Positions 33,152 through 40,932 of a stretch of DNA of 51,912 nt are shown here, one piece after another. Source of the stretch: a virus (lineage: Duplodnaviria > Heunggongvirae > Uroviricota > Caudoviricetes). The notes beneath the pieces are model-generated. The model had not been told where the DNA came from. It saw only the letters and a list, made by a program, of their open reading frames with translations, and searched no databases. How positions within the stretch are numbered: position 1 is the first letter of the stretch; each line of letters starts with the position of its first letter. The stretch lies in the IMG/VR virus record IMGVR_UViG_2718218100_000010; one strand, given 5' to 3'. Both the position numbers and the translations under genes were made by a program.

Positions 33152-33228
33152 TGGCGCGTTGTACTGGATTCGAACCAGTGACCGATTGCTTAGAAGGCAA
33201 TTGCTCTGTCCGGCTGAGCTAACAACGC
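33152..33228 (-). tRNA. tRNA-Arg (anticodon UCU), 77 nt
   Basis: Cloverleaf folded by hand: acceptor GCGTTGT/ACAACGC, D-arm GCTC..GAGC, anticodon stem ATTGC/GCAAT with loop CTTCTAA, T-loop TTCGAAT, 3' GCCA. Confidence 0.85.
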
Positions 33229-33241
33229 AGGGTACGGATAA

Positions 33242-33318
33242 TGGACCGCCATCGAGGACTCGAACCCCGCGCAACCAGCTTCGAAGGCTGGCGCTCTATC
33301 CCGATGAGCTAATGGCGG
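33242..33318 (-). tRNA. tRNA-Arg (anticodon UCG), 77 nt
   Basis: Cloverleaf folded by hand: acceptor CCGCCAT/ATGGCGG, anticodon stem CCAGC/GCTGG with loop CTTCGAA, T-loop TTCGAGT, 3' TCCA. Confidence 0.8.
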
Positions 33319-33325
33319 TATGTGA

Positions 33326-33401
33326 TGGTGGCCCTTGCTGGATTTGAACCAGCGACCTGGCGATTATGAGTCGCTCGCTCTCACCACTGAGCTAAAGGGC
33401 C
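33326..33401 (-). tRNA. tRNA with CAU anticodon (Met, or Ile2 if lysidine-modified), 76 nt
   Basis: Acceptor GGCCCTT/AAGGGCC, anticodon loop CTCATAA, T-loop TTCAAAT, 3' ACCA; first tRNA after Q as in many lambdoid prophages. Confidence 0.8.
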
Positions 33402-36928: not shown

Positions 36929-37587
36929 TGGCGCACCTCCTGCGGCGGTTCTGGTAGCGGCATCCAGTCGGTTACATTGCGGCTCTGTGTTTCGAAAAAT
37001 TCATCACCATCACGGACTACATCAAAAAACTCACCGTCTCGATATTGCGCATAAAGAACGAATGCGCCATCACATAAAATAATTACGTGCTGACCGTCAT
37101 CCGGCATTCGCTCACTACAGCTTATCCAACCATCCAGAGTTACCGGATAGTTGGTTGACGTTTCCGAGATTTCCCGAAAATTATTGGTTGACGAATCTTT
37201 ATTTTCCCGAAAGTTTCCGGACTGAAGCATGGCTTCGCGGCAATCGTTCCAGCCTGTAGCGTATGCAGCCGCTTTGCTGCTGCCTTCAACTGGCGCATCC
37301 TGCCAATACATTTCTTCCGGCACTATCGGCGCTGGAGGGGCGGCAAATAGATATCCGCCAAAGTCAGGAAGCTCTCCAATGGCCTGTACGAACTTTTGTT
37401 TGCCTACGTCAACTCCTAATGGGTAATGAGCTATAATCTTTGCCACCGGCTCTGCTTCCAGCGATACCAGTGCAATTCGTGCCAGTTCTTCCGCTTCTTC
37501 TGCTGGCAGTACAACGTTGCTACCCGGTCCGTATGTTTCGCGCCACTGCTTGATTGTCAGCAGTCGCCCTTTGGTAATAGTGATCAT
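36925..37587 (-). CDS. Phage protein of unknown function (DUF551-like C-terminus?), 220 aa
   Basis: Acidic C-terminal region ...DGEFFDVVRDGDEFFETQSRNVTDWMPLPEPPQE; family assignment from memory only. Confidence 0.5.
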   Translation of the reverse strand: MITITKGRLLTIKQWRETYGPGSNVVLPAEEAEELARIALVSLEAEPVAKIIAHYPLGVDVGKQKFVQAIGELPDFGGYLFAAPPAPIVPEEMYWQDAPVEGSSKAAAYATGWNDCREAMLQSGNFRENKDSSTNNFREISETSTNYPVTLDGWISCSERMPDDGQHVIILCDGAFVLYAQYRDGEFFDVVRDGDEFFETQSRNVTDWMPLPEPPQEVRQ

Positions 37588-38099
37588 GCCGCGTTTCCTT
37601 CTTTCTTATTAACAATCACACCGTCATATATTTCATTAAGGTGCCCTCTCAACTCCATGCGCCTTAATGCAGATAACATGTAATCGCATTCAACCTGCTT
37701 ATTCCCAGTAAATGGCTTATCGTCAGGATTACCCCAACAGCAATTACCCTTGGGCCACCCATGTACTTTCCGTACTCTTCCGTTAACAACGTGAAGTAAT
37801 CCCCAGCCAGGTGGTAAATCCTCAATTGAAATAATTCCCGGCTCACTAATAAAGAATCGCCAGTCGCCCATTCCAAGAGACGGATTTTTACGAAAACGCT
37901 TTTTTCTATCTGCCAACAAGTCAGCACGAGAACATTTCGCCTCTATCAGGCATGATGCTGAATTTCTGAATCCCATAGCATCTGGCTGTTCTCCGGTACT
38001 GGTTACAGCTATAAAGCGGTCATGAAAACAAACCTTGAACCCGTTGCGCTTAAGGAACTTGTACGCAATCTGACAGAGTTCGCGGTGTGTTAACGCCAT
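37584..38099 (-). CDS. Hypothetical protein, possible PD-(D/E)xK-type nuclease, 171 aa
   Basis: ATG at 38099 (MALTHRELCQ) with strong SD AAAGGAGAG; FHDRF ... LIEAKCS resembles a D...ExK motif. Confidence 0.4.
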   Translation of the reverse strand: MALTHRELCQIAYKFLKRNGFKVCFHDRFIAVTSTGEQPDAMGFRNSASCLIEAKCSRADLLADRKKRFRKNPSLGMGDWRFFISEPGIISIEDLPPGWGLLHVVNGRVRKVHGWPKGNCCWGNPDDKPFTGNKQVECDYMLSALRRMELRGHLNEIYDGVIVNKKEGNAA

Positions 38100-38100
38100 A

Positions 38101-38986
38101 TCACTCTCCTTTGATGCGAATGCCAGCAAGCCAGTTTCTTATGCCGATATATTCAGCGTTCCTGAAACCGCTTTTTACATATATAAATGGCAAGCGAAGA
38201 TTGTGACCATTGACTGCCAGGTAGTCTTTACAACCCTGTTCGGTGAAACAGCAGGTAACGAATTCATCAATATCTTTCACAGCAACGCGCCGCCATTTTT
38301 CTGGTGGCTCTCGAAAGTTTTCATGAAGTAGCTCGAGACGACGACTATGGCGTTTATTGGCTTCATTGCCATCTTCGTCAACCCAGACAATCCGGTCATG
38401 GTCATAATCAGCATCAACAACGATTTCGCGCTTTTGATACACACAAAACATGGGATCTGACGTTATTCGATTGTCCTGTGTTCGAATATTTTCACCGATG
38501 ATGCCAAACGAATCTGGTGCAGATTTTGTCTGCATCTCTTCGATACGTTCAGCCATCGCAGCACACTCTTCAAAGTTGCTTAATGCTTTTCGCTCCCATT
38601 CGGCGCATTGTTTTTCCAGTTCTGCTATGCGCTTACTTCCATCCGCGATTACTCCCTCGTAATATTCACGCTGCTCGTTGAGTTTTGATTTTGCTGCTTC
38701 AAGCTCAACGCGCAGCTTCCCTACCGTTAGCGCAATATCCTCGTTCTCCTGGTCGCGGCGTTTGATGTATTTGCTGGTTTCTTTCCCGTTCATCTAGTAG
38801 TGCCAGCACGGTTTCTGGTCCGGCCAGAAATTTGAAGGCGTTGAGCGCATCAATATCCACACCGTAATCCTTAAGTTCCTGTTCAGTTAACAAATCATCA
38901 TCAACTGGCAACATTAACAGGCGTTCCATTGCCGGGATTGCACGTTCTGCCGCCTCACGCAACTCCTGATAGTCAATCTCGCTCAC
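38101..38986 (-). pseudogene. Ea22-like early protein, apparently frameshifted (ORFs 38705..38986 and 38101..38793 overlap by 89 nt)
   Basis: N-terminal module VSEIDYQELREAAE...VLALLDE parallels the intact paralogue at 39465-40193, then continues as coiled coil in another frame. Confidence 0.4.
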
Positions 38987-39468
38987 TGGTTGCCCTCCTT
39001 CATAAAAATAATCCAGTGGGTCTTGTCACCCTTTCCTGTTCGTTGACCGATAACAGGCTTTCTGTCGGTCAGTGCCAATATTTGGCGAACAGGTATTTGC
39101 GTTTCATTCCATTTAAAAATCAGAACGCCGTATGGCCACAACACACGAAAGGCTTCTTTAAATCCCTGCCGCAAATCATCACGCCAGGTATCTTTATTCA
39201 GCCGTCCATATTTCTTTCCCATCCAGGCGTTATCACCAACACGCTCAAGATGCGGAGGGTCGAATACAACAACCGGAAACGATGCGTCTGCAAATGGTAA
39301 TGCACGAAAATCTGCTATCAGGTCAGGGCTAATTATCAGCCGTCGTCCATCACACAATGTGTGCTCTTCCTTTCTGATATCGCTAAATATCGCCCGGTCG
39401 TCCTTCTTATCGAACCAGAACATGCGACTGCCACAGCACATGTCGAGGATTGCTGCATGTAAAGTCAC
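38983..39468 (-). CDS. Small orphan DNA methyltransferase (amino-MTase DPPH motif), 161 aa
   Basis: Motif I-like ILDMCCGS and motif IV FDPPH; GTG start overlapping the upstream stop in the GGAGGCAACCAGTGA junction. Confidence 0.65.
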   Translation of the reverse strand: MTLHAAILDMCCGSRMFWFDKKDDRAIFSDIRKEEHTLCDGRRLIISPDLIADFRALPFADASFPVVVFDPPHLERVGDNAWMGKKYGRLNKDTWRDDLRQGFKEAFRVLWPYGVLIFKWNETQIPVRQILALTDRKPVIGQRTGKGDKTHWIIFMKEGNQ

Positions 39469-40193
39469 TGGTTGCCTCCTTTGCTAATCTGTTCCGCCCA
39501 TTCTTCAAGGGATTTCTCCGCATATTCACCAGACAGGCCATCAATCGGATGCGCTTCATTAGCCAACTCTTCTTTCGCTGACAAAATCATGCGTGTAACG
39601 TCGAAAACTTCACGCAAAGACTTATTGATAAATCCGTGATTGAACGCAGCAGCAAGACGGCTGGCGGTATAGTTAATCCCCTCGTTGCGTGCTTCCGCAC
39701 GAATTTCAGCCAGAAAAGCATCGGTAGCTGGAGTTTCGCTGTGGTGTAGGGCATCGTTGATAATCATTGCAGCAACACCAGCCTGCCCTGCATCCGTGAC
39801 CGACACATGCTCAAGAGTTACGGCCATTGCGTGTTTCAGTCCGGCGTTCTCTGCCACCAGCGCCGCGAGATTAGTCTCAAGCTCTGCAATACGGCACATA
39901 GCATCAATATTTGTGTCTTCCAGCCGCTTAATTTCATCCAGTAGTGCCAGCGCAACATTTGGATTAAAAGCAGCAATAAATTCAGCGTTTGCATAAGCCT
40001 GAGCATCTGATTCAATCAGGCAGTTAACATGACATTCCGCAATCACGCCACCGGGTTCTCCTTTCCATTTTTGACAAACAAAAACTCCTGTTAAATTGCC
40101 GTGCTGGTTAACAGATGTATGCCCTACGATGTAGCTTCCTTTAGTTGCTTTCTCTGCCTTTTCACGCAGTGCCTGGTAGTCAATCTTGCTCAC
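39465..40193 (-). CDS. Ea22-like early-region protein, about 242 aa
   Basis: GTG start ([15 protein letters not shown]) preceded by GGAGGCAACCA; coiled-coil middle; track ORF extends to 40223. Confidence 0.5.
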
Positions 40194-40932
40194 TGGTTGC
40201 CTCCTGGCAAAGCTGGGCGACAATATCGCGATATTTATTCAGCTCCCGCAGCGCGACACAGACTCGCTCCCATTTCCGGATATCACTTTTCGCCCGACGC
40301 AGTTCGCGGTTTGCCTGTCGCAGCGATGGCAGAACCAGATTATCCACTCGCTTCTCAAGCGGCTGCACAATGTCTGCCACAGTTTCTGTTTTAATATCTT
40401 CCTGTGTTGCAGCTTCCTGTCCCGGTAACGCAGCACCTGCTGGCTGAGGAAAGGCCTTACCATCACTTTCCGTTACCAGCGCGGCTTTCGGCTCTGCTGG
40501 TAAATTATCGCCCGGCATGCAGTAACGAAATTTACCGTTCTGATTAACGCGTGCCAGCCGCCCCGTTGCGGTTACCACCGCCAGCGTGGAAGCAACCTTG
40601 CGAGTACTGACACCGAACTTACCCGCCAGTTCCTCACACGTTTTAGCCCCATCCTGACCGATAAACTCAATCATCATGTCTGCGGTAACTTTTTGTTCGA
40701 CCTCCCCGGTCAGCATATCCTGTGCTTCAGATTTTACTGGCCGCTCTTCGGTTACCCGGGATTCACCTTCGCCAGCCAGAAACCAGGTGTGACCAGTTTT
40801 ATCAACGACGCCATTTCTTTTGAGTTCCCACAGCTCGTTGACAGCCTCTTCACGACTGATATCAAGTCGCGCAGCCAGTTCTACCGACGTGGCTTTTCCC
40901 ATTGCTTTCAGTGCGTCAAATACAGTTTCCAT
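40180..40932 (-). CDS. Hypothetical protein with N-terminal winged-helix-like segment, 250 aa
   Basis: ATG at 40932 ([30 protein letters not shown]) with GGAGG RBS; directly downstream of the DnaC-like gene. Confidence 0.45.

Follow-up and report, generated by a model that had tools for sequence, protein, structure and literature searches.

A conserved intercistronic linker at accessory-gene junctions of a Rac-like prophage, a probable lambdoid boundary sequence

Short conserved boundary sequences at the borders of lambdoid phage modules are attributed to Susskind & Botstein 1978 and Clark et al. 2001 by papers that cite them (PMC3029335, PMC2327257), and such sequences are missing from most mosaic joints (PMC3029335). 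A second familiar arrangement is the coupled ATGA or GTGA junction of phage operons, in which start and stop codons overlap and a Shine-Dalgarno sequence within the upstream ORF precedes the start by 6 nt. Genes of the Ead/Ea22-like family (PF13935; lambda ea22, P22 ead) combine a conserved N-terminus with a variable body and a conserved short C-terminal tail, and the Ea22 literature describes high sequence diversity and a common K/RGE ending (PMC7093339). Finally, studies of mosaicism mediated by Rad52-like recombinases (Martinsohn et al. 2008; De Paepe et al. 2014) offer a plausible enzymology (Red-beta, RecT, Erf) for exchange between phages, the homologies in these studies being 100 bp or longer. 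For pairing, PMC3945230 quotes minimal lengths of 23-27 bp (Red-beta) and 31-34 bp (RecA).

We analyzed a 51,912-nt stretch of viral DNA (the window; IMG/VR record IMGVR_UViG_2718218100_000010). The region of interest belongs to the rightward early operon of a Rac-like E. coli O157:H7 prophage, where it follows the replication genes, and every gene in it lies on the minus strand. Three consecutive gene junctions share a linker that reads GGAGG(G)CAACCAGTGA on the coding strand and TCACTGGTTGCC(C)TCC on the plus strand (Table 1). Two of the copies are an exact 15-mer (GGAGGCAACCAGTGA) and the third is a 16-mer (GGAGGGCAACCAGTGA); perfect identity extends over 12 nt between copies A and B, 14 nt between A and C, and 16 nt between B and C. 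With up to two mismatches allowed, the window contains three matches against 0.14 expected from shuffled sequence, and none of 100 shuffles reached three. The original prediction had placed the same ribosome binding site and GTG start at these three junctions, with the start overlapping the upstream stop at two of them, and both points hold. Its positions were right except at the low end, which fell 1 nt short because the A of the TGA was omitted.

Table 1. Linker copies, repeat copies and genes of the junction region
Feature	Position	Strand	Remarks
Linker copy A	38983..38998	-	GGAGGGCAACCAGTGA; encodes ..KEGNQ-stop tail of the methyltransferase, Shine-Dalgarno sequence, GTG of Ea22-like gene 1
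Linker copy B	39465..39479	-	GGAGGCAACCAGTGA; encodes ..KGGNQ-stop tail of Ea22-like gene 2, Shine-Dalgarno sequence, methyltransferase GTG
Linker copy C	40190..40204	-	GGAGGCAACCAGTGA; DUF1627 frame ..QEATSEQD-stop; Shine-Dalgarno sequence and GTG (40193) of Ea22-like gene 2
Repeat copy 1	38946..38994	-	first ~13 codons of Ea22-like gene 1 (VSEIDYQELREAAE) and part of linker
Repeat copy 2	40153..40201	-	first ~13 codons of Ea22-like gene 2 and part of linker
Ead/Ea22-like gene 1	38101..38986	-	two ORFs in window
Methyltransferase cassette	38983..39468	-	161 aa, GTG start; linker B 5', linker A 3'
Ead/Ea22-like gene 2	39465..40193	-	242 aa, GTG start
DUF1627 gene	40180..40932	-	upstream partner of linker C

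The linker consists of a GGAGG Shine-Dalgarno sequence, the 6-nt spacer CAACCA and a GTG start codon. In a GTGA overlap, the TG of this start also belongs to the TGA stop of the upstream gene. This overlap joins the methyltransferase stop to the start of Ea22-like gene 1 (38983-38986) and the stop of Ea22-like gene 2 to the methyltransferase start (39465-39468). At the third junction, the DUF1627 gene reads the linker in a different frame and ends 10 nt later (TGA, 40180-40182), giving a 14-nt overlap with the GTG of Ea22-like gene 2. The features of a coupled stop/start junction are thus all present: a Shine-Dalgarno sequence inside the upstream ORF, 6 nt to the GTG, and overlapping start and stop. 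Translational coupling is the role most directly evident from the sequence, and we predict that the linker serves it.

One explanation for the recurrence is that selection for an optimal coupling signal has produced the same sequence convergently, with neither common descent nor recombination involved. The GGAGG, the 6-nt spacing and the GTGA overlap do form a canonical coupling arrangement. However, ordinary coupled junctions differ between unrelated gene pairs, whereas dozens of combinations share the linker as an identical stretch of 15-23 nt. Neighbouring junctions in the same operon and in the related phages P22 and HK620 differ from it in Shine-Dalgarno sequence, spacer and start, mostly showing ATGA overlaps. 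Moreover, both the functionally neutral CAACCA spacer and the weaker GTG are conserved, and conservation often reaches 6-20 nt beyond the motif on the upstream side. A scan for the 18-mer in one genome per species returned 23 matches, only 2 of them in Escherichia, against ~17 expected by our estimate. That matches in unrelated bacteria occur in about the number expected by chance can be cited in favor of convergence; this same chance level outside enterobacterial prophages also counts against it, and it rules out a universal bacterial motif. We consider convergence very unlikely. The linker is specific to an enterobacterial prophage lineage.

Other genomes provide a view of the genes that the linker joins. 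The exact motif was found in 126 unique contexts (viral contigs and E. coli loci), and nearly all of the enterobacterial ones sit at a stop/start border. A GTGA overlap with an upstream ORF ending ..GGNQ is seen in 85 of the 126. The best upstream ORF of the remaining 41 runs on to a later stop (offset +10, n = 29; +4, n = 9; other, n = 3), mostly in a second frame that ends ..EATSE(Q/R)(D/N/H) or ..EATSE. Since upstream genes use two frames through the linker, conservation is at the level of nucleotides rather than peptide. A selected ..KGGNQ tail can be ruled out on these grounds, as other upstream genes read the same nucleotides as ..EATSEQD. One caveat here is that the viral contigs were chosen by the exact motif, which builds conservation within the 15-mer into the set; the only results free of this bias are the reassortment of flanks and the independent searches of E. 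coli. In the latter, a 48-nt junction probe centered on the linker matched 2357 of 5426 complete E. coli genomes (~43%) in 4397 places, and almost all of the matches listed span two annotated genes. The linker is also found on phage-plasmids, and point variants of it occur (GGAAGCAGCCA, GGAGGTAACCA, GGAGGAAACCA).

Across the 126 contexts, ~17 upstream and ~16 downstream gene families meet in 37 combinations. The original prediction depended on enrichment of the motif at gene junctions of related phages; in related prophages it proves abundant at such junctions and joins many unrelated families. The alternative that weighs most here is pure paralogy coupled with illegitimate recombination. It holds that the repeats are merely the 5' ends of duplicated Ea22-like genes together with homologous C-terminal tails, that joints form at random and survive only at gene borders (the Hendrix/Juhala model), and that the motif has no part in exchange. 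Several observations are in line with it: two of the three copies in the window precede Ea22 paralogs, ~65% of downstream partners are Ea22-like, 59 of the 126 upstream partners share an ..AAQLRKGGNQ tail, and most mosaic joints, as noted above, lack conserved boundary sequences. Much of the linker's abundance does come with the Ea22-like family. Yet non-Ea22 genes adjoin the linker both downstream (methyltransferase, DUF7739, DUF7446, PAPS reductase and others) and upstream (DUF2737, DUF1627, Lar-like), and 16 of the 37 combinations lack an Ea22-like gene on either side. Conversely, Ea22 5' ends are also seen to follow junction sequences of quite another kind, and the linker is therefore separable from Ea22. 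The linker being simply an untranslated 5' part of Ea22 genes is rejected for these same reasons.

The larger repeat is where paralogy does apply. An imperfect direct repeat of ~55 bp had been reported to bracket the methyltransferase gene and Ea22-like gene 2, and we recovered it as 49 nt at 84% identity that runs on into the linker with a 1-nt indel. Both copies encode the PF13935 N-terminus (profile positions 1-81 for copy 1), and the family profile matches from position 1 at 39465-40193 (E = 1.3e-26) and 38705-38986 (E = 2e-17). A further paralogous block lies at 38789-38807 and 39933-39951 (95%). The ~55-bp repeat consists of the paralogous 5' coding ends of two Ead/Ea22 genes plus the linker, and its 49-nt part counts among the points in favor of paralogy. 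It would lengthen the homology open to exchanges between Ea22 genes. In the window, an A-run (38770-38772) with one A too many breaks Ea22-like gene 1, which is intact (885 nt) in strain F6321. The last ~13 codons of DUF1627 align to the extended linker (..AAQLRKGGNQ), save for a 1-nt frame-shifting gap. The known Ea22 ending also occurs in the window, as an ..IKGE tail with its junction at about 38097-38128; unlike that K/RGE tail, the ..KGGNQ tail given by the linker is attached to non-Ea22 genes as well. The gene between linkers B and A is annotated as a class I SAM-dependent methyltransferase and matches phrog_954 'DNA methyltransferase'.

Evidence for reassortment comes from two four-gamete sets, in which reciprocal combinations of upstream and downstream genes have only 21-23 nt in common, (T)TCGCAAAGGAGGCAACCAGTGA. 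Flanks of the same type are 82-99% identical (one methyltransferase pair, 60% ungapped), whereas those of different types are 20-43% identical, mostly about 20-30%, which is near random. HSP ends accumulate at 38995-39000 (n = 77), 40204-40206 (n = 56) and 39465 (n = 14), and homology blocks stop at the linker edges. Part of this pile-up is expected under illegitimate recombination, because selection for intact genes alone clusters mosaic joints at gene borders. Three alleles share the same flanks: empty (L155), occupied by the methyltransferase (the window) and occupied by an Ea22-like gene (L156). Each insert is bounded by linker copies. An arrangement without the methyltransferase (Ea22-like gene 2 tail, linker, Ea22) exists naturally; for the predicted deletion product DUF1627/linker/Ea22-like gene 1, no contiguous natural example was found, the best matches being in two pieces (87.7%).

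These data argue against paralogy and illegitimate joining as the whole account, which we regard as unlikely: four-gamete sets share just 21-23 nt, and independent illegitimate events would not repeatedly recreate the same spacer and rare GTG. For the 15-nt core, partners, four-gamete sets, block ends and alleles all speak against a motif that reflects only paralogous N-termini. Comparison shows 15-23 nt that are identical by descent at junctions of otherwise unrelated genes, with the limits of mosaic homology blocks coinciding exactly with those of the linker. Our preferred reading is that the linker is probably a conserved intercistronic boundary sequence of accessory-gene arrays in enterobacterial lambdoid prophages. 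The arrays that carry it contain Ea22-like, DUF2737, methyltransferase, DUF7739, DUF1627 and similar genes.

The resemblance to the lambdoid boundary sequences is close: a short conserved stretch lies at the borders of unrelated early-operon accessory genes and is proposed as homology for exchange. Among the features that define such sequences, conservation at gene borders, unrelated flanks, and reciprocal combinations together with presence/absence alleles are found here. In HK620, the phage of Clark et al. 2001, a linker variant with one mismatch (GGAGGCAGCCAGTGA) occupies the hkaH/hkaG(ead) junction. Kinship with the boundary sequences of Clark et al. 2001 is one of concept, drawn from the descriptions given in citing papers. 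Unlike the lambdoid examples, the present case comprises three consecutive copies beyond the replication genes in the rightward operon of a prophage that is Rac-like, a position that differs from the lambda-type exo-xis location.

Because the junctions have the linker sequence in common, recombination within it would bring together, in register, an upstream and a downstream gene of any kind. The coupling signal and the two ORFs would survive such joins, and cassettes such as the methyltransferase could be gained or lost between two linkers. Candidate agents are single-strand-annealing recombinases (the prophage's own RecET, Red or Erf) or RecA-independent short-homology events. RecE and RecT are encoded by the same prophage according to its annotation, and related loci encode Erf. 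The Rad52-like recombinase studies, in contrast, dealt with homologies of at least 100 bp, and the linker does not exceed the 23-27 bp quoted as the minimum for pairing. The 12-16 nt of identity between the window copies fall below the quoted pairing lengths and are too short for efficient recombination. We infer from the comparisons that the linker may nonetheless allow exchange. Of the original proposal of a recombination linker, the comparative part is borne out by partners, reassortment, block ends and alleles; the exchange role stays at the level of inference, and the idea itself was already known.

Direct copies of a motif that bound cassettes superficially resemble gene-cassette systems, and we considered whether the linker might be a site-specific or structured element: an integron attC-like site, a site for a dedicated recombinase or nuclease, or a regulatory RNA hairpin. 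When the three junction RNAs were folded, none did better than shuffles (z-scores -0.9, +2.0 and -0.04), and they have no stable or common fold. The motif has no inverted-repeat architecture, point variants are tolerated (those listed above), and the RefSeq twin locus has no integrase or recombinase annotation in the 9 kb on either side of the array. An attC site is rejected on these grounds, and the general class of explanation is extremely improbable. Chi was likewise rejected, since the octamer GCTGGTGG is absent from the motif and its complement (TCACTGGTTGCCTCC). A bolder version of the boundary-sequence reading is that the linker forms a standardized, in-register 'plug-and-play' cassette array of enterobacterial prophages and phage-plasmids. 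Such an array would resemble integrons in function. Its operators would be phage single-strand-annealing recombinases, with the coupling signal also serving as their ~20-nt homology, and it would be kept by second-order selection for evolvability as well as for expression. We think this analogy decidedly unlikely to be correct.

The linker is a rediscovery of the known boundary-sequence concept and reveals no new mechanism. What it adds is a clean and very abundant natural case for the debate over mosaicism, in which exchange at conserved linkers is set against random joints plus selection. Its reciprocal combinations and empty and occupied alleles could become a direct recombination assay. 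The linker also explains the ..KGGNQ tail common to accessory proteins of unrelated families, the error-prone annotation of starts and of apparent frameshifts near Ea22-like genes, and orphan methyltransferase cassettes that move between leftward and rightward early operons.

Three consecutive minus-strand gene junctions carry the same short linker, as originally predicted; we shifted the coordinates of the copies by 1 nt and made the strand explicit (see table). GGAGGCAACCAGTGA occurs exactly in copies B and C, and GGAGGGCAACCAGTGA forms copy A. Allowing up to two mismatches, the window holds 3 motif matches versus 0.14 expected, and no shuffle reached 3. The linker is evidently a Shine-Dalgarno site, a spacer and a GTG start that overlaps the upstream stop, the classic arrangement for translational coupling. 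The overlap had been claimed for two of the three junctions, and there the TG of the start is indeed common to the upstream TGA; at the remaining junction, DUF1627 runs through the motif in a different frame and its stop lies 10 nt further on. There is no support for a structured or site-specific element: the three junctions give fold z-scores of -0.9, +2.0 and -0.04, the linker lacks inverted repeats, and no recombinase gene adjoins the array in the RefSeq annotation of the twin locus.

Features of the array and its surroundings (genes and their order from the RefSeq annotation of the twin locus; the genes of the array all lie on the minus strand)
Feature	Position	Strand	Remarks
ydaS/ydaT-like genes			first in the annotated order
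DUF1376 replication gene			after ydaS/ydaT-like genes
ydaV (DnaC-like)			between DUF1376 gene and DUF1627
DUF1627	40180-40932	minus	
Ead/Ea22-like #2 (Ea22#2)	39465-40193	minus	GTG start; PF13935
Class I SAM methyltransferase	38983-39468	minus	GTG start; phrog_954
Ead/Ea22-like #1 (Ea22#1)	38101-38986	minus	PF13935
Overlapping ORFs of Ea22#1	38705-38986, 38101-38793		extra A at 38770-38772
Hypothetical gene, then DUF551			after Ea22#1; DUF551 start 37587
Linker copy A	38983-38998	minus	
Linker copy B	39465-39479	minus	
Linker copy C	40190-40204	minus	
Larger repeat	38946-38994, 40153-40201		
Second paralogous block	38789-38807, 39933-39951		
Second conserved junction	~38097-38128		Ea22#1 stop 38101-38103, next-gene ATG 38099
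Third recurrent junction	~37570-37616		
Tandem copies inside DUF551	37151-37215		
tRNA cluster	33152-33401	minus	Arg-TCT, Arg-TCG, one with CAT anticodon

A Rac-like prophage of E. coli O157:H7, present in strains F6321, 2571 and AUSMDU00002545, matches this region with 100% identity. Replication genes precede the array in the RefSeq order, and recE/recT and kilR are annotated on the other arm of the same prophage; this places the array in the rightward early operon, after the replication genes, rather than at the exo-xis position of lambda. The gene assignments were confirmed by searches of Pfam and PHROG, in which PF13935 aligned with both Ea22 genes from its first profile position and the methyltransferase was assigned to phrog_954, 'DNA methyltransferase'. 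In the window, an additional A in an A-run splits Ea22#1 (CAGCAAATAC, versus CAGCAATAC in strain F6321, whose copy is intact at 885 nt); the extra base is either a true indel that makes the gene a pseudogene or a sequencing error in the homopolymer. AUSMDU00002545 (NZ_CP045975.1) carries an IS3-family insertion that the window lacks and is otherwise identical to 38600-40700. DUF551 contains two tandem 32-33-nt copies with 75% identity (TTGGTTGACG..TTCCCGAAA.TT), and the CAT-anticodon tRNA of the prophage's three-gene tRNA cluster is Met according to ARAGORN and Ile according to RefSeq.

The larger repeat, put at about 55 bp in the original prediction, is present as 49 nt with 84% identity, and is explained by Ea22 paralogy: it codes for the first ~13 codons of both paralogs (VSEIDYQELREAAE is one N-terminus), which also share a second block. 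The 3' end of DUF1627 (40180-40240) aligns with the extended linker (DFAAQLRKGGNQ, then the stop) save for a 1-nt gap (GCCAGG vs GCAAAGG). Hence the last ~8 codons of DUF1627 are linker plus Ea22 start read in another frame, which accounts for its 14-nt overlap with Ea22#2.

To see the linker beyond the window, we scanned IMG/VR and the fetched E. coli loci for exact matches, obtaining at least 126 unique junction contexts with full flanks. In 85 of the 126 contexts listed, the upstream ORF ends in GGNQ (mostly KGGNQ) within a GTGA overlap. The remaining 41 have a best upstream ORF whose stop lies further downstream (+10, n = 29; +4, n = 9; other, n = 3), mostly in a second frame ending in EATSE(Q/R)(D/N/H) or EATSE. 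Since upstream ORFs use two frames through the motif, selection on the peptide tail is ruled out, and conservation is at the nucleotide level. Clustering of the flanking proteins, after trimming linker-proximal residues, gave at least 17 upstream and 16 downstream families in at least 37 combinations among the contexts listed. Ea22-like proteins make up ~65% of these downstream partners; among the others are the methyltransferase, DUF7739, DUF7446, several families without a name and a protein with a PAPS-reductase domain. The upstream side has, among others, Ea22-like C-termini, DUF2737, DUF1627, the methyltransferase and a Lar-like protein. In at least 16 junctions, neither flanking gene is Ea22-like, and Ea22 5' ends also occur behind unrelated junctions (for example, GAGAGGTTCGAA-GTGAGC in Stx phages and GGGGCGATGA-ATGAGC in other Rac-like prophages). 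The linker is thus separable from Ea22, a mosaic unit of its own.

Two four-gamete sets were found. In one, upstream EWAEQIR and CDELAAQLR each occur with a downstream 74-aa gene and with the methyltransferase; in the other, upstream DUF2737 and LVDFAAQLR each occur with DUF7739 and with Ea22. Flanks are 82-99% identical within type over about 140-150 nt (one methyltransferase pair excepted, at 60% ungapped) versus 20-43% between types, and all that the four members of a set have in common is (T)TCGCAAAGGAGGCAACCAGTGA, 21-23 nt. When window 36.5-43.5 kb was compared by BLAST with all fetched loci, HSP ends piled up at 38995-39000 (77 HSPs), 40204-40206 (56) and 39465 (14), with only 3-4 HSPs running through each motif; joined matches to complete E. 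coli genomes end at the same positions. Pure paralogy with illegitimate recombination explains these data in part: it accounts for the larger repeat and some of the pile-up, but leaves the non-Ea22 junctions and the four-gamete sets unexplained, so the motif does not reflect only paralogous N-termini. Comparison shows that unrelated gene pairs carry a linker identical by descent, and that it marks mosaic boundaries.

Related prophages also hold the alternative gene content that the original prediction proposed looking for. A synthetic methyltransferase-less junction (Ea22#2 tail, linker, Ea22#1 5' end) matches natural genomes in one contiguous piece at 92.6-95% identity, for example in a P22-like leftward operon of strain 01_3327. 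The window has the methyltransferase-occupied site (486 nt between two linker copies), and in O55:H7 strain DEC5D the insert between two exact copies is an Ea22 gene of 681 nt. The methyltransferase-plus-Ea22 cassette occurs in Rac-like rightward operons, P22-like leftward operons and ~90-100 kb plasmids. No contiguous match to the predicted DUF1627/linker/Ea22#1 deletion product was found in natural sequences.

Of 5426 complete E. coli genomes, 2357 contain a match to a 48-nt probe of the junction, at 4397 places (up to 13 per genome; 755 on plasmids); almost all matches listed span two annotated genes. With one genome per bacterial species, the 18-mer gave 23 matches, only 2 from Escherichia, versus ~17 estimated by chance. 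The linker is an element of enterobacterial prophages. Its chance-level occurrence outside that lineage contradicts convergent selection for a good coupling signal, as do the retention of a neutral spacer and the rare GTG and the different sequences at neighbouring junctions. The array and linker are also found on E. coli plasmids of ~80-100 kb, such as p2010C_5028-1, which are probably phage-plasmids.

Other junctions recur as well. A related eaE tail (AAQLRKGVQS) occurs in P22, whose eaF and eaD (25499 and 25855) share a junction and 5' end, CAGCCCA-ATGAGCAACATCGA, a P22-specific analogue of the linker junction. The second conserved junction, GGCATTCGCATCAAAGGAGAGTGA(T/G)ATGGCGTTAACACAC, yields an Ea22 tail, GIRIKGE, that matches the short C-terminal K/RGE tail common to Ea22 proteins in the literature (PMC7093339). 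It is also present in Stx phage AU5Stx1, Lys8385Vzw and several E. coli prophages; HK620 hkaG/hkaF has only the ..GGCATTCGCATCAAAGGAGAGTGAGATGG part, before a different gene. The third, ATTGTTAATAAGAAAGAAGGAAACGCGGC-ATGATCACTATTACCAAA, where ATGA overlaps the upstream stop, is common to p2010C_5028-1 and two further comparison loci (L001 and L002).

We infer that crossovers inside the shared 15-23 nt join genes in register, which would leave the coupling signal and the two ORFs intact. Where the downstream gene is an Ea22, the available homology would reach up to ~55+ nt. Such crossovers could produce the observed cassette gain, loss and reassortment, and phage annealing recombinases (RecET in this prophage, Erf in related loci) are plausible enzymes. 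Quoted minimal lengths for efficient pairing are 23-27 bp for Red-beta and 31-34 bp for RecA (PMC3945230). As the three window copies share perfect identity over only 12-16 nt, they are better seen as traces left by earlier exchanges than as substrates that would recombine efficiently today.

The idea of a modular linker was right in outline, with comparison backing reassortment at the linker and the crossover step resting on inference, but the concept was already known. The concept of conserved boundary sequences for module exchange is established: the relevant passage of PMC3029335 credits them to Clark et al. 2001 (HK620) and Susskind & Botstein 1978, and a passage of PMC2327257 describes the same concept as 'flanking, short and conserved sequences'. 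HK620, the phage of Clark et al., itself carries a variant of the linker junction, GGAGGCAGCCAGTGA, at hkaH/hkaG(ead). The linker is a real finding, yet one that would not surprise a specialist.
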